Virus genome (UHGV): UHGV-1841366
Direction: 5' to 3' (one strand)
Length of the DNA stretch: 54,360 nucleotides
Source of the DNA: a virus
A model generated the notes under the pieces. The model saw only the letters and a list, made by a program, of their open reading frames with translations. It was not told where the DNA came from and searched no databases. Shown here one piece after another: positions 4,531 to 47,592 of this stretch. The position numbers were made by a program, and so were the translations under genes. Position 1 is the stretch's first letter, and every line of letters starts with the position of its first letter.

Positions 4531-4782
4531 ATGAGCTATCAAATTCTGACGACGACAGCAGCCAGCATTACTGAGCTGAAAAGAAACCCTATGGGCACTG
4601 TAGCTGAAGGTGAGGGGGAGGCCGTCGCAATCCTGAACCGGAATGAACCCGCGTTTTACTGTGTCCCACCAGAACTTTATGCCTACTATCGGGAACTCGC
4701 CGAGGACGCTGAACTTAACGCGATTGCAGATGAAAGAATGAAAGAACCGGACATTGTGAAGGTTAACCTGAATGACCTATGA
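4531..4782 (+). CDS. type II antitoxin, RelB/StbD-like
   Basis: 83 aa; overlaps the downstream RelE-like gene by 11 nt; C-terminus (DAEL...VKVNLNDL) resembles the RelB C-terminus as I remember it; GAGGAGG ribosome-binding site. Confidence 0.6.
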   Translation: MSYQILTTTAASITELKRNPMGTVAEGEGEAVAILNRNEPAFYCVPPELYAYYRELAEDAELNAIADERMKEPDIVKVNLNDL

Positions 4783-5053
4783 GCTGGCATTTGAACGCAG
4801 GGCACTGAAAGAATGGCAGAAGCTCGGCCACACTGTTCGTGAACAATTCAAAAAGAAGCTGTCAGAGCGCCTGAAAAATCCACATGTCCCCGCAGCCAGG
4901 CTATATGGTCATACTGACCGTTACAAAATTAAGCTTCGCGCATCCGGTTACAGGCTCGTTTATCAGGTAATTGATGAGAAGGTTGTTTTGCTTGTCATTG
5001 CTGTAGGAAAAAGGGAAAGCAGCGAAGTCTATCACACGGCTGATACTCGTTAG
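4772..5053 (+). CDS. relE: type II toxin, RelE/ParE superfamily
   Basis: 93 aa; the stretch YKIKLRASGYRLVYQVIDEKVVLLVIAVGKRESSEVY closely matches the E. coli RelE sequence as I recall it (not database-checked). Confidence 0.7.
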   Translation: MTYELAFERRALKEWQKLGHTVREQFKKKLSERLKNPHVPAARLYGHTDRYKIKLRASGYRLVYQVIDEKVVLLVIAVGKRESSEVYHTADTR

Positions 5054-43691: not shown

Positions 43692-43997
43692 TAAAAAGGC
43701 CCGCACACAAGGTGCGGGCAAATGATCGCGTAATATACTCAACAATTAGCTCTGTAATTATACAGATTCTTAATAGCGACAGAACTATTTAATGCGCTCG
43801 GATTCGTTTTTAGTTGAAGTAATATTAAACACCCTGAAATATCGTATAAGTTACTCGAAGGGGTTCATTAGAATCCATTCAATGCTTTCTCGGCAGTGCT
43901 TTGAAACGATAATGGATAAGTAAGCACATACCTACAATGAAAGTGTGATATGTGATATAAATCCGCCATCCCGATTTGACTTTTCATGGAGGAAAAC

Positions 43998-44321
43998 ATG
44001 TCGAACGAGATGGCGGGCGTTACAACAGATCAAGTTGAGCGTATTGCCGCAATCGTTGCTCGGGAGGTTGTTGGCAAATTGGGTAAAGAGCTACGTGAAG
44101 AAATTGGCCAGGAGGTCAACGATCAGCTGAAAACCTACTTTGGTGATATGACCCCGGCGCAACATAGTATTCAACACTCCAACCTGGACAAACTCCTTAA
44201 CCGGTTAGATTCCATCTCAAGTGGGTTCTTTGGCGGCATTGTTTCTAAAATAACGTCGTTCATTATTACCGCACTGCTTTTGGGGTTAGCCGCGTATGGC
44301 GTAAAAAACGGGCTGCAATAA
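43998..44321 (+). CDS. putative lysis-cassette membrane protein (holin candidate)
   Basis: ATG after GGAGG; single C-terminal hydrophobic helix (ITSFIITALLLGLAAYGV); first gene of the block ending in spanins. Topology is atypical for holins. Confidence 0.3.
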   Translation: MSNEMAGVTTDQVERIAAIVAREVVGKLGKELREEIGQEVNDQLKTYFGDMTPAQHSIQHSNLDKLLNRLDSISSGFFGGIVSKITSFIITALLLGLAAYGVKNGLQ

Positions 44322-44334
44322 CAGGAGATCAAGG

Positions 44335-45027
44335 ATGAAAACTCCGAGAGGCATTCGTAATAATAACCCCGGTAATCTTGATAAAGGATCACCGTGGCAA
44401 GGTCTGGTTGCGAATCCAGACGAACCGCGCTTTTGCACGTTTAAAGACCCTGTTTGGGGGATTCGTGCGCTGGCGGTGACTCTAATTACCTACCACGATA
44501 AACGTCGCGCAAAAGACGGCTCAAGTATCGATACCATTCGTGAAGTTATTGAACGCTGGGCACCGCCGAATGAAAACAATACTGACGCCTACATTAATGA
44601 GGTGTCTAAAGCCGTTGGTGTAACCGCAGACATGATCATCGATCTGCATGATTACGACATCCTTCGACCTTTGGTTGAGGCAATCATTCGCCACGAGAAT
44701 GGTCGAGGTCCACTCAAAACGCTGAACACCTGGTATGCGGCAGAAGTTATTGAGGAAGGTCTGCGTCGAGCTGGCGTCGTTAAGCCGGTGAAAACCGTGA
44801 AGGCTGTTCCTGTAACTAAAGAAACCGCAGGCGCAACTGTTACAGCAGGTATTGGTCTGGCGCAGCTGGCCGATGTTATGCCGCAGGTTTCCGCTGCTAT
44901 GGATAAGGCACAAGGTCATATCTCTAGCGGGGATACAGTACGCATCATCTTCGGTATTGCCACTATTGTTGTGGCAGGATTCATTGCCTGGTCGCAGGTA
45001 AGAAAACATCAGAAAGGGATGGTCTAA
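44335..45027 (+). CDS. putative endolysin-position protein with C-terminal membrane anchor
   Basis: 230 aa between holin candidate and spanins; C-terminal hydrophobic helix; I could not assign a hydrolase family. Confidence 0.3.
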   Translation: MKTPRGIRNNNPGNLDKGSPWQGLVANPDEPRFCTFKDPVWGIRALAVTLITYHDKRRAKDGSSIDTIREVIERWAPPNENNTDAYINEVSKAVGVTADMIIDLHDYDILRPLVEAIIRHENGRGPLKTLNTWYAAEVIEEGLRRAGVVKPVKTVKAVPVTKETAGATVTAGIGLAQLADVMPQVSAAMDKAQGHISSGDTVRIIFGIATIVVAGFIAWSQVRKHQKGMV

Positions 45028-45028
45028 T

Positions 45029-45280
45029 ATGCTAGGCAGCCTGATGACAAAGCTAAAAGTTGCTTTGATTACGCTGGCTGCCGTTCTTTTCGTTCTGGTC
45101 GGCGCTTACACGATGGGCGGAAATGCGGCGCGACGAGCAATGGAAGAGAAGGCAAAACAGGAAGACAGAAAACGACTTCAAAACACAGTGGAAGTGGTAA
45201 ATGAGACGAGCAATAAAATACGTCAGAAAGATGCTTCTGCCATTCATCGTGAGTTGTATGATAAGTGGGTGCGTCATTAA
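45029..45280 (+). CDS. i-spanin (Rz-like)
   Basis: 83 aa with N-terminal transmembrane helix followed by a charged helical region; o-spanin ORF embedded in another frame. Confidence 0.55.
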   Translation: MLGSLMTKLKVALITLAAVLFVLVGAYTMGGNAARRAMEEKAKQEDRKRLQNTVEVVNETSNKIRQKDASAIHRELYDKWVRH

Positions 45281-45416
45281 ACCACAAACCGCCAGCGTAT
45301 TGTTCTGCGATGGAGCTGAGCCTATCTATATCAGCAATAATGATGTAATGACCGAAGAAACCGAACGCCAAATCCTTTTTCACAATACGATGGGAGAGAG
45401 AGTTTGCGGTTGGTGA
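45201..45416 (+). CDS. o-spanin (Rz1-like lipoprotein)
   Basis: Overlaps the i-spanin in a different frame; signal-like segment with lipobox-like ISGC; true start may be the internal ATG at 45231. Confidence 0.5.
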   Translation: MRRAIKYVRKMLLPFIVSCMISGCVIKPQTASVLFCDGAEPIYISNNDVMTEETERQILFHNTMGERVCGW

Positions 45417-45424
45417 TACGAAGT

Positions 45425-45442
45425 TCCCCTCATTTGAGGGGA
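45425..45442. terminator. hairpin between convergent genes
   Basis: TCCCCTCA / TGAGGGGA stem between the + strand spanins and the minus-strand toxin gene. Confidence 0.45.
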
Positions 45443-45447
45443 GTACA

Positions 45448-45969
45448 TTATTCTTCGAACAATTTTTCGATAGATTTTGTTGGATAGAACAAAGATCGCT
45501 CGTTGTTTCCAATCAACTGGATAAAGCCCAGGCTTTTATAAAACGCCTTAGCCTTATCATTCAACGCCTCAACGAAGAGTCCATGAATACCAACAGCAAG
45601 AGAGGCGTTATACACAACACGCATAGCGTGTGTTACAAGCATTGAGCCAAACCCTTGACTTTGAAGAGGTTTGTCCAAAGCCAGTCTGCCCAAAGTAACA
45701 CTTGGCACATTCCGATAAGGCACCTTCTTTTGCTGGCTTCTTGAAGGTAAGGACTCCTTTTCAAAGCAGCTGCCTGACAAAGTGTAATACCCTAACACTT
45801 TGGGTCTGTCTTCTTTAGTGCAAAGCACATAAGCGCGAAGAATTTTTCCCTCATGCTGTCTTTTTAAGTGGTTGATTAAAAAGGAGTTTAGAGATTCTTC
45901 ACCGCAATCAAAGCCATTCAAATCATAATCTTTCTCTCCAGAGAAAATTTCTATCTTTATATTATCCAC
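45448..45969 (-). CDS. ataT: GNAT-family toxin of a type II toxin-antitoxin pair (AtaT/TacT/KacT-like)
   Basis: 173 aa; near-collinear match to the AtaT sequence as I recall it (DYDL..FDCGEE, VLGYYTL.GSCFE, IPSVTLGRLA, GIHGLFVEALN, FYKSLGF); 7-nt gap to the upstream antitoxin. Confidence 0.7.
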   Translation of the reverse strand: MDNIKIEIFSGEKDYDLNGFDCGEESLNSFLINHLKRQHEGKILRAYVLCTKEDRPKVLGYYTLSGSCFEKESLPSRSQQKKVPYRNVPSVTLGRLALDKPLQSQGFGSMLVTHAMRVVYNASLAVGIHGLFVEALNDKAKAFYKSLGFIQLIGNNERSLFYPTKSIEKLFEE

Positions 45970-45976
45970 GAGTAAA

Positions 45977-46246
45977 CTATTCCATGCTTTTCAGACGATC
46001 AGCAGCTCGTTTCAGCTTGTCGTTCGGTGCCGGAGGATTGCTTATAGCGTCCATAACCAGATTCCAGGATTCCTCATTCAGAACCAGTCTACGGTGTTGC
46101 TCTATAACTTTCACGGCACGTTCAGATGCACTGCTAACCATAAACTGAGTAATGCTCTGGTTAGACATTGCGGCAGCTTCCTCGATGATGCTTTTATCGT
46201 CATCGGTTAATCTCAAATCGATGCGCTGCTTTTTTAGTGCTGACAT
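45977..46246 (-). CDS. ataR: DUF1778-type antitoxin (AtaR/TacA-like)
   Basis: ATG at 46246 preceded by AGGAGG (ORF track begins upstream at 46285); MSALKKQRIDLRLTDDDKS...NEESW closely resembles AtaR as recalled. Confidence 0.7.
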   Translation of the reverse strand: MSALKKQRIDLRLTDDDKSIIEEAAAMSNQSITQFMVSSASERAVKVIEQHRRLVLNEESWNLVMDAISNPPAPNDKLKRAADRLKSME

Positions 46247-46434
46247 GTATTCCTCCTGATGGCCGTGATGTAGGAAGGCCATCAATCTCCTCTGTTCAAA
46301 CTGAGGTTTCGACTCAAAAATTACTTTAAAAGGCTATAGCCCATTACGTGTGCATTATCAAATTGTGTACGGCATATCACCGTACTTGTAATATAGAGGT
46401 CATTGTTACTTTTTTCAACAGACAAATACAAGCT

Positions 46435-46456
46435 GTGATTGCCAATTGTTAATCAC
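46435..46456. promoter_or_regulatory. operator-like inverted repeat GTGATT-N10-AATCAC
   Basis: In the 318-bp divergent region between ataR and parA; a second inverted repeat GTACGG-N8-CCGTAC lies at 46369-46390. Confidence 0.35.
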
Positions 46457-46516
46457 AACCTACCATTTAACCTTTACACCGCAGCCGTAGGCATTTAGGC
46501 TATATCACATATAAGA

Positions 46517-46529
46517 AAACAAGTTGTTT
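46517..46529. promoter_or_regulatory. palindromic motif AAACAA-N-TTGTTT (copy upstream of parA)
   Basis: Perfect copy 36 nt upstream of the parA start. Confidence 0.5.
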
Positions 46530-46564
46530 CAGACGATAATTATATACGCAAAGGGAACTCTCCA

Positions 46565-47233
46565 ATGACCAAGATCTTTGTGGTTGGCGGCACAAAGGGC
46601 GGGCCTGGCAAATCCACCGTTGCCCAGCAAATTGCCGTTTGCCTGAAAGTCAAAAAGAAGAAGAAGGTTTATATCACTGATATAGATATTCAGCGCACGA
46701 CAACAAGCTGGTGTGAAGACCGTCGACAGAACGAAGACCTTGAGCTGATTCCTTTTGCATACGTTCAGGATGACATCATTAAGCACCTAAAATCACTTCA
46801 GGGTAGAGCTGAGTTTGTAGTGGTAGATGCTGGTGGCTTTGACTCCGAAATTCAGCGACAAGCGATGCTGATGGCTGACGTTATCATTATCCCGCTTCGT
46901 CCTAAGCGTCGTGATTTGAAATCTCTGCGTGACATCGATCCTATTATCGACAATGTTCGTAATGTAAACGATAAAGTGAAGGTCCGCGCGGTCATGAACC
47001 AGTGCCCGGCTTTGCCATCACAAGTGTCTCGCATTCTGGCGGCTAAAGAGATTGTCGAGACGTTTGGCATCGAGTCTGCGCCTGTCAATCTATATAACCG
47101 CAACGTCTACGATGATGCGGAAGAGTCTGGTCGTTCTATCTTTGAAATGACCGGTAGCGAGCGCGACAAAAAGGCGGAAGCCGAGTTTGAAGAATTTGTA
47201 GATTATCTGTTGAGTCTGGAGGAAGAAGAATAA
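46565..47233 (+). CDS. parA: ParA-family partition ATPase (small, type Ib-like)
   Basis: 222 aa; deviant Walker A GGTKGGPGKST; no N-terminal DNA-binding extension. Confidence 0.75.
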   Translation: MTKIFVVGGTKGGPGKSTVAQQIAVCLKVKKKKKVYITDIDIQRTTTSWCEDRRQNEDLELIPFAYVQDDIIKHLKSLQGRAEFVVVDAGGFDSEIQRQAMLMADVIIIPLRPKRRDLKSLRDIDPIIDNVRNVNDKVKVRAVMNQCPALPSQVSRILAAKEIVETFGIESAPVNLYNRNVYDDAEESGRSIFEMTGSERDKKAEAEFEEFVDYLLSLEEEE

Positions 47234-47592
47234 TGTCCATGAAAATGGGTGACCTAGCAAAGCGCAAAGAGCCTGATGCACCGGCTAAGAACACAACTCC
47301 TTTGCGCCAACCAGTCAGACCACAGGGACGCCCGACTCGTGGCAAAGAGAAAATTAAAAGCCGCACAATGTCACTGGAAGACGAATACTTCGAACTGCTG
47401 GAGATGATGAAGTTCATCCCTCGTTTCGAGAAGTTCACCCGTTCTGACGTGATTCGAGCAGCTATTTTCCATCTGGCAGAGAAGTCACCGCAGGAAATCG
47501 AGGACATCGTGAAACTTAACGAGGCGATCACAGCTGCCGACGTTACTATGCGTACCGATGAAATCAAGCGAGAACTCATGAAAAAAGGCTGA
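47233..47592 (+). CDS. ParG-like small centromere-binding protein (putative)
   Basis: 119 aa translationally coupled to parA (TAATG); basic disordered N-terminus and short C-terminal helical region. Confidence 0.5.
   Translation: MSMKMGDLAKRKEPDAPAKNTTPLRQPVRPQGRPTRGKEKIKSRTMSLEDEYFELLEMMKFIPRFEKFTRSDVIRAAIFHLAEKSPQEIEDIVKLNEAITAADVTMRTDEIKRELMKKG

Follow-up and report, generated by a model that had tools for sequence, protein, structure and literature searches.

Among the toxin-antitoxin modules that pair a GNAT acetyltransferase toxin with a DUF1778 antitoxin, the closest described systems to the one analysed here are AtaR-AtaT of E. coli O157:H7 (6GTS, 6AJM, 6AJN) and KacA-KacT of Klebsiella pneumoniae (5ZGN, 5XUN). 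The toxins AtaT and KacT, which belong to clade A, acetylate Gly- and hydrophobic aminoacyl-tRNAs and act at elongation (PMC9177977). KacAT, a chromosomal locus of a genus other than that of our element, assembles as a heterohexamer and is controlled through conditional cooperativity (PMC6698736). TacAT (Salmonella), ItaRT (E. coli) and GmvAT (Shigella pINV) share the superfamily, the GNAT toxin, the DUF1778 antitoxin and aminoacyl-tRNA acetylation, but fall into the distant clades B and D and have a narrow or different tRNA specificity (PMC9177977). GmvT sits in clade D with TacT (PMC9177977), and GmvAT stabilises the Shigella plasmid pINV in a Lon-dependent manner (PMC6519299).

A near-identical cassette is already annotated in print, in the phage-plasmid Cyrano (pLF82, OV696614), and the module is thus already known (PMC9928086). 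The Cyrano pair, CYRAN_26/CYRAN_27, carries the annotation "KacT acetyltransferase-type toxin / putative antitoxin". In Cyrano/pLF82 lysogens, transcription exceeds the local prophage background 35-fold for the toxin gene and 60-fold for the antitoxin gene, at a copy number of about 5.5 per cell (PMC9928086). Here, we describe the corresponding locus of the viral genome UHGV-1841366, whose whole 54,360-nt stretch is referred to as the window, and compare it with these systems.

Results

The window is identified from its sequence as an SSU5-like phage-plasmid of Escherichia. Within it, the module occupies an exchangeable cargo cassette of 1057 bp (45401-46457) with a GC content of 41.6%, compared to 45.5% for the window, which is limited by the 3' end of Rz1 on one side and by the conserved region upstream of parA on the other. 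When the window was aligned by blastn to five relatives that carry other cargo, all breakpoints fell at 45398-45407 and 46455-46459. The lysis genes on the plus strand were assigned by PHROG matches to endolysin (44335-45027), Rz (45029-45280) and Rz1 (45201-45416), and the module is convergent with them, as an earlier note on this DNA had proposed, and divergent from parA (46565-47233). Between the Rz1 stop and the toxin stop, a terminator scan and an inverted repeat search located a GC-rich hairpin (45423-45444), which has no U-tract on the minus strand, looks like a terminator of the lysis operon and has a comparable counterpart at the equivalent position of a related Citrobacter cassette. 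The RelBE-like pair that the same note had placed at 4531-5053 does exist, as its toxin matches the ParE/RelE family PF05016 (E=8.6e-13).

The cassette was present in 137 of the 672 PLSDB records that matched the query region and in 152 of 5426 complete E. coli genomes. Its occurrence tracks the phage-plasmid backbone, in E. coli, E. albertii, E. fergusonii and E. marmotae and from a wide range of sources. In many SSU5-like phage-plasmids the module is missing and the slot is taken up by different cargo. Three such alternative cargos, SSU5_031/032, the pair of pG749_2 and a 185-aa ORF of Klebsiella, had no match in Pfam and none in PADLOC (E<=0.01).

The ORF list and the raw sequence show both genes on the minus strand, with the antitoxin gene leading and the toxin gene following 7 nt downstream; the interval 45448-46246 is delimited by the stop codon of the toxin and the start codon of the antitoxin. 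The antitoxin gene (45977-46246) is a 270-nt ORF of the DUF1778/TacA1 family that encodes 89 aa, starts with ATG at 46246 and ends with TAG at 45977-45979. An AGGAGG ribosome-binding site, read from the sequence, lies 5 nt upstream of its ATG (46252-46257, minus strand). The toxin gene (45448-45969) encodes a GNAT acetyltransferase of 173 aa in the AtaT/KacT clade. Translation begins at GTG (45969-45967) and ends at TAA (45448-45450), and the spacer that separates the gene from the antitoxin stop is exactly 7 nt (45970-45976, minus strand). Both the GTG start and the 7-nt spacing are kept in phage-plasmid relatives. Directly upstream of the spacer, within the last antitoxin codons, is a GGA(A/G) motif that may be a weak ribosome-binding site for the toxin and thereby hints at translational coupling. 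Both ORFs are far beyond what chance would predict.

Two in-frame antitoxin starts further upstream, TTG at 46285 and ATG at 46282, the latter being the start annotated in Cyrano, were considered and rejected. A 1-nt indel takes the upstream ATG out of frame in the relatives pHNAH968 and pRHB03, and the alignments to KacA and AtaR both begin with the ATG at 46246. In RefSeq relatives the antitoxin is annotated as the identical 270-nt ORF, which is also the ORF used by PGAP.

To place the two proteins among characterised relatives, we compared them with PDB sequences using phmmer. The toxin matched AtaT (6GTS) with 262 bits (E=2.9e-77), gapless over residues 1-172, and KacT (5ZGN_C) with 249 bits over its full length (E=1.9e-73). 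On the other hand, its matches to TacT3 (6G96; 71 bits), TacT (5FVJ; 45 bits) and ItaT (7BYY; 24 bits), whose codes we verified, were weak, and clades beyond AtaT/KacT reached at most 79 bits. The antitoxin, with KacA as its best PDB match, aligned from residue 1 to KacA (E=6.6e-42) and AtaR (E=1.3e-40). Identity was 67% between the toxin and AtaT, 76% between the antitoxin and AtaR, and about 80% between the antitoxin and KacA (70 of 87 positions in the alignment). Pfam assigned the antitoxin to TacA1/DUF1778 (PF08681, E=5.7e-26) and the toxin to GNAT (PF00583, E=9.3e-7), while NCBIfam had no specific model for either protein. Together, these comparisons indicate that the lineage is AtaRT/KacAT, clade A of PMC9177977, and that the TacAT, ItaRT and GmvAT lineages (clades D and B) are not the closest for the toxin, given 24-71 bits for those compared versus 262. 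The earlier note had described a DUF1778 antitoxin followed 7 nt later by a GNAT toxin, both AtaR/AtaT-like, and the Pfam matches, the exact gap, the scores against AtaT and KacT and the intact active-site and DNA-binding residues bear this out. Its label "AtaRT/TacAT-type" holds for the first half once AtaRT is joined with KacAT, but not for the TacAT lineage.

The residues on which activity would depend are conserved. In AtaT, Y144 and G108 are the critical residues. In a nine-sequence alignment, Y144, G108 and Q105 of the toxin were invariant; the acetyl-CoA loop Q/R-x-x-G-x-G/A is present as Q103-S-Q-G-F-G108, and Y144 was found in 35 of 35 loci scored, the window included. The Y145F form of KacT, altered at the equivalent of Y144, served for the AcCoA-bound structure and the DNA-binding assays (PMC6698736), and the same tyrosine is changed in TacT Y140F and TacT3 Y143F (PMC5959882). 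By homology, the N-terminal part of the antitoxin is a ribbon-helix-helix DNA-binding region and the C-terminal part is toxin-neutralising. Its N-terminus, MSALKKQRIDLRL, contains R8, D10 and R12; in KacA, R8A and R12A abolish operator binding and D10A weakens it (PMC6698736). Of the C-terminal neutralisation residues of KacA, M65, I68, Q70 and R77 (PMC6698736), the first two are identical in the antitoxin, and the other two are replaced conservatively by N and K, with K likewise found at position 77 of the functional AtaR.

Operator-like inverted repeats had also been noticed in the intergenic region between ataR and parA, and one of these now has a precise counterpart. The palindrome GTACGG-N7-CCGTAC (GTACGGCATATCACCGTAC, 46367-46385) is the sole match in the 54-kb window, where 0.06 would be expected by chance. 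Both its half-sites and its 7-bp spacing are identical to those of the DNA duplex crystallised with KacAT, AAATGTACGGTTATTAACCGTACATGA (PMC6698736), and to those of the motif preceding ataR in O157. The palindrome occurs once upstream of the antitoxin in 25 of 25 loci with an antitoxin gene, namely the window plus 24 relatives; its half-sites never vary but its spacers do. GTACGG-N7-CCGTAC is thus the predicted operator recognised by the toxin/antitoxin complex. A second palindrome of 24 nt at the right cassette edge (TGTGATTGCCAATTGTTAATCACA, 46434-46457) was not counted as an operator because its palindromy is not conserved in 88%-identical relatives.

Upstream of the operator, a consensus scan identified a sigma-70-type promoter on the minus strand (46390-46418) with a -35 TTGAAA, a 17-nt spacer and a -10 TATATT, scoring 10 of 12 consensus matches. 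TTGAA(A/T) and TAnnnT elements lie at a constant distance from the operator in distant relatives. The operator begins 4 nt downstream of the -10 hexamer, and transcription is predicted to start within the left operator half-site.

The 5' leader contains a stem-loop (46257-46284, minus strand) that was identified as an inverted repeat and in the MFE fold, with 8-bp arms (UGAUGGCC/GGCCAUCA) and a 12-nt loop, and its 3' arm abuts the antitoxin ribosome-binding site. The stem is kept, with differing sequences, in Enterobacter soli, Lelliottia, Huaxiibacter and a conjugative plasmid; five of its eight pairs show two-sided compensatory changes, while the loop length is unchanged. In 10 of 12 long-leader loci, the hairpin was more stable than at least 92% of shuffles. 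The fold of the whole leader RNA is unremarkable (z=-1.47), with only the local hairpin by the ribosome-binding site standing out, and Rfam returned no family in the leader. This pattern of covariation suggests that the stem-loop has a function.

Purifying selection acts on both genes, with dN/dS values of 0.06-0.12 for the toxin and 0.00-0.10 for the antitoxin. Among 34 related phage-plasmid loci compared, both ORFs were intact with Y144 and R8/D10/R12 in 33, the exception (L050) having a shorter toxin ORF.

Comparison with named relatives revealed how the locus is related to each. AtaRT has its genes in the same order and of matching size (88/89 and 173/175 aa), aligns without gaps, and shares Tyr144, Gly108, and the GTACGG/CCGTAC half-sites with their 7-bp spacing. 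However, it is a chromosomal locus between panM and livK with only about 65% DNA identity to the window module, an intergenic spacer of 6 nt rather than 7 nt, and an ATG rather than a GTG toxin start. The operator of AtaRT and its ATG are 26 nt apart, with no separate leader hairpin, whereas the gap in the window is 120 nt and holds the stem-loop. KacAT has R8/D10/R12, M65/I68 and the operator half-sites in common with the window module, while Q70 and R77 of KacA differ as described above. A contig scan for relatives returned only chromosomal ones, at 61-72% identity, and no Klebsiella kacAT locus.

Cyrano shares the cassette, the slot and the flanks, and its antitoxin protein is identical. 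The toxin gene segment, on the other hand, is only about 89% identical in DNA and 94% in protein, compared to 98-100% for the flanks, which points to replacement of the toxin allele by recombination. Citrobacter/Enterobacter SSU5-like phage-plasmids such as pCF20-4P-1-3 carry a divergent GNAT/DUF1778 cassette in the equal slot and orientation and with the same operator half-sites. Its antitoxin is 88% identical but its toxin, of 167 aa, only 62% identical, and its leader is 222 nt long with a hairpin of different sequence. By megablast, this cassette matched 76 PLSDB records, in 43 of which 80% or more of its length was covered, and the Citrobacter allele had no PADLOC match at E<=0.01. A conjugative-plasmid module (L029), found in 313 PLSDB records, is 71% identical and adjoins vapBC. 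We rejected its equation with GmvAT of Shigella pINV, as its protein is unlikely to be GmvT: GmvT falls in clade D (PMC9177977), while L029 is 71% identical to a clade-A toxin. GmvAT is therefore a precedent at the family level only.

Discussion

The locus is, as far as its sequence can tell, an intact, ordinary and functional-looking member of a well-studied toxin-antitoxin family. The explanation as a whole, a functional clade-A type II toxin-antitoxin operon that most likely serves as an addiction cassette, is one we consider very probable, and for the identity and molecular mechanism of the module we are close to certain. By analogy with its homologues, the toxin would transfer an acetyl group from acetyl-CoA to the alpha-amino group of aminoacyl-tRNAs, and the clade-A targets, Gly- and hydrophobic aminoacyl-tRNAs, would lead to stalled translation elongation; toxicity, neutralisation and target range are extrapolated here from homologues that are 67% identical. 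The C-terminal part of the antitoxin would wrap the toxin, thereby blocking both acetyl-CoA binding and toxin dimerisation. Given 67-80% identity to the crystallised 5ZGN and 6AJM, the complex is probably a T2A4 heterohexamer, in which the N-terminal ribbon-helix-helix dimers of a T-A2-A2-T arrangement would bind the GTACGG-N7-CCGTAC site overlapping the transcription start, and repression of the operon would depend on the toxin:antitoxin ratio. Upon loss of the phage-plasmid, a presumably labile antitoxin would not be replaced and the toxin would arrest the cell.

Whether such post-segregational killing is the main role of the module is a separate matter, and here we lean only slightly in favour, on the basis of genomic context and of the analogy to GmvAT of the distant clade D. 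The context is that of a low-copy extrachromosomal replicon, since the backbone is that of an SSU5-like phage-plasmid and the cassette adjoins parA. The absence of the module from many SSU5-like phage-plasmids means that it is not needed for maintenance, and because these elements also carry a partition system and at least one further toxin-antitoxin pair, any stabilising effect could be redundant.

An unlikely but coherent alternative is that the cassette is primarily anti-phage cargo, acting through abortive infection or superinfection exclusion, or a weapon against competing mobile elements. Infection or host shut-off would deplete the antitoxin, and the toxin would halt translation before the invader's cycle ends, a scheme that is compatible with addiction. 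The slot is sharply bounded and variable, and it holds several unrelated cargos in relatives, as accessory or defence hotspots typically do; the module is expressed in the lysogenic state (PMC9928086), and immune effectors are known among other tRNA-targeting toxins. However, neither protein matched a PADLOC model (PADLOC-DB 2.0, E<=0.001), nor did the alternative cargos of the slot, a literature search combining DUF1778/GNAT with phage defence returned no defence report for the GNAT/DUF1778 family, and the chromosomal and plasmid homologues studied to date are tied to persistence or plasmid stability. Since the alternative cargos lack Pfam and PADLOC matches, they do not help in choosing between addiction and defence. 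Nothing in the data points to counter-defence, which the earlier note had also suggested. We regard it as similarly doubtful that the lysis-parA slot of SSU5-like phage-plasmids is a hotspot of competition and defence, in which the cassette excludes phages or rival phage-plasmids, possibly with cross-talk to chromosomal ataRT. If this were true, identical half-sites and a 76%-identical antitoxin would allow an anti-addiction interplay with chromosomal ataRT, which is present in about 30% of E. coli, and the covarying stem-loop would set the antitoxin:toxin ratio post-transcriptionally.

It is quite improbable that the module is fitness cargo, useful to the host as a switch for stress or persistence instead of serving its own maintenance, for which Salmonella TacAT in macrophages is the precedent. 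In macrophages, related GNAT toxins favour the formation of non-growing persisters (PMC4942678, PMC5959882), and the Cyrano copy is expressed in LF82, a macrophage-surviving AIEC strain. Yet the TacAT clade is distant (45-71 bits, compared to 262 for AtaT), no phenotype is reported for the Cyrano module, and the distribution follows the phage-plasmid backbone across Escherichia species rather than any pathotype. We give very little credence to a decayed or domesticated remnant, in which the acetyltransferase is non-toxic or the antitoxin alone is kept as a transcriptional regulator. Although the toxin's GTG start and its weak ribosome-binding site point to a low level of translation, nothing specific speaks for decay, and the GTG start and the 7-nt spacing are themselves conserved. 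Moreover, strong purifying selection acts on the two intact ORFs (dN/dS 0.04-0.12), neither the catalytic Tyr nor the Gly of the AcCoA loop varies, and the ORFs are intact in 33 of 34 related phage-plasmid loci.

The module leaves knowledge of the GNAT/DUF1778 family unchanged, and the new details are minor, namely the covarying stem-loop by the antitoxin ribosome-binding site and the replacement of the toxin allele by recombination. The main value of our analysis lies in correct annotation, with start codon, promoter and operator placed for an AtaRT/KacAT-type module. In a sizeable proportion of SSU5-like plasmid records, the lysis genes are separated from the partition genes by a GNAT/DUF1778 pair: 137 of the 672 PLSDB records matching the region have this cassette, and 43 others have most of the divergent one. 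Since SSU5-like elements are common in clinical Enterobacteriaceae, the module probably helps them to persist, and curing these elements would require neutralising it.

Gene layout and family of the toxin-antitoxin module

Two genes on the minus strand make up the module: an antitoxin ORF at 45977-46246 (89 aa, ATG start, TAG stop), with the ribosome-binding site AGGAGG 5 nt upstream of its ATG, and a toxin ORF at 45448-45969 (173 aa, GTG start, TAA stop), separated by exactly 7 nt (45970-45976). The ORF list and the raw sequence bear out the coordinates, gene order, and spacing given in an earlier note. The lysis genes are on the plus strand, convergent with the module, and comprise a PHROG 5093 protein (43986-44321; holin by annotation in relatives) and, by PHROG, an endolysin (44335-45027), Rz (45029-45280), and an embedded Rz1 (45201-45416); a GC-rich hairpin (45423-45444) lies between the Rz1 and toxin stop codons. 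At its C-terminus the endolysin (PHROG 873, no Pfam match) has a hydrophobic segment, IIFGIATIVVAGFIAWSQV, with basic residues after it, and the protein may be anchored in the membrane through this end; some of its orthologues are named 'membrane protein' in RefSeq. The ParA-type ATPase gene (46565-47233) is divergent from the module.

The antitoxin matches Pfam TacA1/DUF1778 (PF08681, E=5.7e-26), while the toxin matches Pfam GNAT acetyltransferase families. When the toxin was searched against all PDB sequences, AtaT scored 262 bits (6GTS/6AJM; E=2.9e-77, gapless over residues 1-172) and KacT 249 bits (5ZGN/5XUN; E=1.9e-73), followed by TacT3 (6G96; 71 bits, E=1.1e-18), TacT (5FVJ; 45 bits, E=1.2e-10), and ItaT (7BYY; 24 bits, E=3.3e-4) (the last three structures from PMC5959882 and PMC7367177). 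The antitoxin aligns from residue 1 with KacA (6.6e-42, ~80% identity) and AtaR (1.3e-40), and the chromosomal ataRT of O157:H7 Sakai has 67% toxin and 76% antitoxin identity to the window's pair. Judged by these sequence similarities, the module belongs to the AtaRT/KacAT lineage, clade A of PMC9177977, and the AtaT and AtaR scores show that the earlier note was correct to read it as an AtaR/AtaT-type pair of DUF1778 antitoxin and GNAT toxin. The TacAT, GmvAT, and ItaRT lineages were ruled out by the PDB scores together with the published clades (PMC9177977).

Residues important in characterised relatives are largely retained. Alignment identifies toxin Tyr144 as the counterpart of KacT Y145, TacT Y140, and TacT3 Y143, which were mutated to Phe in the proteins that were crystallised (PMC6698736, PMC5959882). 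In an alignment of nine diverse relatives, neither Tyr144 nor Gly108, a residue of the Q-x-x-G-x-G acetyl-CoA loop, varies. The antitoxin carries the DNA-binding residues R8, D10, and R12; in KacA, operator binding is lost in R8A and R12A and weakened in D10A (PMC6698736). Of the KacA neutralisation residues (PMC6698736), M65 and I68 are identical in the window's antitoxin, whereas Q70 is replaced by N and R77 by K, which is also found in AtaR.

A predicted operator and a leader hairpin precede the antitoxin gene

The KacAT complex was crystallised on the DNA AAATGTACGGTTATTAACCGTACATGA (PMC6698736), and TGTACGGTGACATACCGTACA lies upstream of O157 ataR. We found a candidate operator with the same half-sites and 7-bp spacer length, GTACGG-CATATCA-CCGTAC, at 46367-46385; GTACGG-N7-CCGTAC has this single match in 54 kb, compared to 0.06 expected by chance. 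The operator-like inverted repeats that had been noted in the ataR-parA region thus resolve into one predicted operator. In every locus with an antitoxin gene (25, the window and 24 relatives), a scan of the 400 nt preceding that gene revealed exactly one motif, with invariant half-sites and variable spacers, the signature expected of half-sites recognised by a protein. A sigma-70-like promoter (TTGAAA-17 nt-TATATT, 46418-46390, minus strand; 10/12 consensus positions) lies 4 nt upstream of the motif, and the hexamer-to-operator spacing is retained in distant relatives. The predicted transcription start falls inside the left operator half-site, in agreement with kacAT, where the palindrome spans the start site (PMC6698736). 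Separately, a near-perfect 24-nt palindrome, TGTGATTGCCAATTGTTAATCACA, at 46434-46457 sits exactly at the cassette's right edge, in the interval separating the ataR and parA promoters, which are divergent; relatives of 88% identity do not retain its symmetry.

Escherichia phage Cyrano (pLF82), a close relative, is annotated with an antitoxin start at the in-frame ATG 46282. This start was ruled out by a 1-nt indel between it and ATG 46246 in relatives and by homologues, which begin at the downstream ATG (46246). The operator is 120 nt from the ATG in the window, compared to 26 nt in O157 ataRT, and the distances in the family cluster into groups of 21-26, 67, 81-94, 112-122, and 222 nt. Inverted-repeat and folding analysis identified a stem-loop at 46257-46284 on the minus strand, with arms UGAUGGCC and GGCCAUCA and a 12-nt loop. 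In long-leader loci (the window and related loci L009, L011, L014, L029, L005, L012, L015, and L019), the stem-loop ends directly at the antitoxin ribosome-binding site, and it is absent where the operator is 21-26 nt from the ATG. Homologous leaders in Enterobacter soli, Lelliottia, Huaxiibacter, and one conjugative plasmid keep the loop length, and in one case the loop sequence, but their stems differ (GACCGCCC/GGGUGGUC and GACCGUUC/GAGUGGUC), with both partners substituted in 5/8 stem pairs compared to the window. Some pairs are G-U, which argues for a structure formed in RNA rather than a palindrome in DNA. Unrelated hairpins occupy the same position in other lineages, and hairpin stability exceeded that of at least 92% of shuffles in 10/12 representatives. 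Folding of the whole leader was not unusually good (z=-1.47), Rfam gave no match in the leader, and we found no description of a stem-loop by the ribosome-binding site in the literature on the family that we searched. We regard the stem-loop, from its pattern of conservation, as a real conserved element, which may adjust antitoxin output through an effect on translation or mRNA stability.

The module occupies an exchangeable slot of SSU5-like phage-plasmids

The region matches SSU5-like phage-plasmids, including Cyrano (94% identity over 45300-46600), 2 records of Escherichia phage CMS-2020a, and hundreds of ~110-kb non-mobilizable plasmids of Escherichia, Klebsiella, Enterobacter, Salmonella, and Citrobacter. 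SSU5 itself is similar to the window only from 46458 on, and two unrelated ORFs on its plus strand separate Rz1 from parA. By blastn against five relatives with other cargo, all breakpoints fell at 45398-45407 and 46455-46459. The module is therefore a 1057-bp cassette (45401-46457; 41.6% GC vs 45.5% for the window) whose slot is exchangeable and has sharp boundaries.

In the window and in related loci (L002, L005, L006, L007, and L008), the cargos of this slot are of at least four unrelated kinds, and three of these consist of hypothetical proteins. Alternatives include two hypothetical ORFs (SSU5 and pG749_2 type) and one 185-aa ORF in Klebsiella, and the cargos other than toxin-antitoxins had no Pfam or PADLOC match. 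Citrobacter and Enterobacter elements carry a divergent GNAT/DUF1778 pair (62% toxin and 88% antitoxin identity) with the same operator half-sites as the window; by megablast this cassette matched 76 PLSDB records, and in 43 of these the match covered 80% or more of it. The window's own cassette was found in 137 of the 672 PLSDB records matching the query region. Of 5426 complete E. coli genomes, 152 have it, and ~1600 have chromosomal ataRT (~65% DNA identity).

Other toxin-antitoxin loci were also considered. At 4531-5053 on the plus strand, two overlapping ORFs (83 and 93 aa) form a second pair. The label 'RelBE-like' proposed for it is reasonable for the toxin, the downstream ORF, which matches Pfam ParE_toxin (PF05016, RelE/ParE superfamily; 8.6e-13); the upstream ORF had no Pfam match at E<=0.001. 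A 119-aa plus-strand ORF (47233-47592) starts with an ATG that shares one base, the last, with the parA stop codon. Cyrano's annotation calls it 'RelE/ParE putative toxin', a label that is probably wrong; the ORF matches no Pfam family and only a PHROG of unknown function, and its position by parA suggests a partition adaptor or centromere-binding protein. A third clade A GNAT/DUF1778 lineage is represented by L029 (E. coli plasmid NZ_CP159645.1, 2487-3290; toxin 71%, antitoxin 79% identical), where it adjoins vapBC and IS remnants. Conjugative plasmids commonly carry this lineage (313 PLSDB records, 251 conjugative), and its identification as GmvAT was rejected because GmvAT lies outside the AtaRT/KacAT lineage (PMC9177977).

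Selection, toxin exchange, and proposed role

We compared the module with copies in 34 related phage-plasmid loci from GenBank, RefSeq, and IMG/VR. Against relatives of 82-99% DNA identity, the toxin gave a dN/dS of 0.06-0.12 and the antitoxin one of 0-0.07; against a 76%-identical conjugative-plasmid copy, the antitoxin value was 0.10. Both ORFs, the GTG toxin start, Y144, and R8/D10/R12 are intact in 33/34 copies, the sole exception being L050, with a slightly shorter toxin ORF. Together, the low dN/dS and the intact ORFs and key residues rule out a decaying remnant. Cyrano and the window share 98-100% identity in the flanks, around the promoter, and over the greater part of the antitoxin gene, but only ~88% over 45414-46012 (the toxin gene and last dozen antitoxin codons), where synonymous divergence is 0.57 vs 0.055 in the antitoxin gene. 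Scoring 35 loci (the window, the 34 relatives, and a viral contig that is more distant) gave 17 distinct toxin proteins but only 5 distinct antitoxin proteins. Judging from this divergence and these variants, recombination has evidently substituted diverged toxin alleles next to an antitoxin whose protein sequence stayed the same.

The family is among the best-characterised of type II toxin-antitoxins. Clade A toxins AtaT and KacT modify Gly- and hydrophobic aminoacyl-tRNAs in vivo and block elongation, which peptidyl-tRNA hydrolase counteracts (PMC9177977). Following the KacAT precedent (PMC6698736), the antitoxin would hold the toxin in a T-A2-A2-T heterohexamer and neutralise it there by preventing it from binding acetyl-CoA and from dimerising, and this complex would bind the operator and repress the operon with conditional cooperativity. 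The module is real and was rightly interpreted in the earlier note, and it is already known, since RefSeq names its products 'GNAT family N-acetyltransferase' and 'type II toxin-antitoxin system TacA family antitoxin' and Cyrano's copy was published as a KacT-type toxin and antitoxin (PMC9928086). The exact cassette boundaries, the slot shared with alternative cargo, the toxin-allele replacement, and the covarying hairpin may be new, although all are incremental. A function in defence or exclusion is less probable, and nothing in this analysis supports one. The best-supported role would be post-segregational killing on a phage-plasmid of few copies per cell, because the cassette directly adjoins the partition genes, because it is transcribed in the lysogenic state of LF82 (35- and 60-fold above the local prophage background; PMC9928086), and because GmvAT, of the same family, provides Lon-dependent stabilisation of Shigella pINV (PMC6519299).
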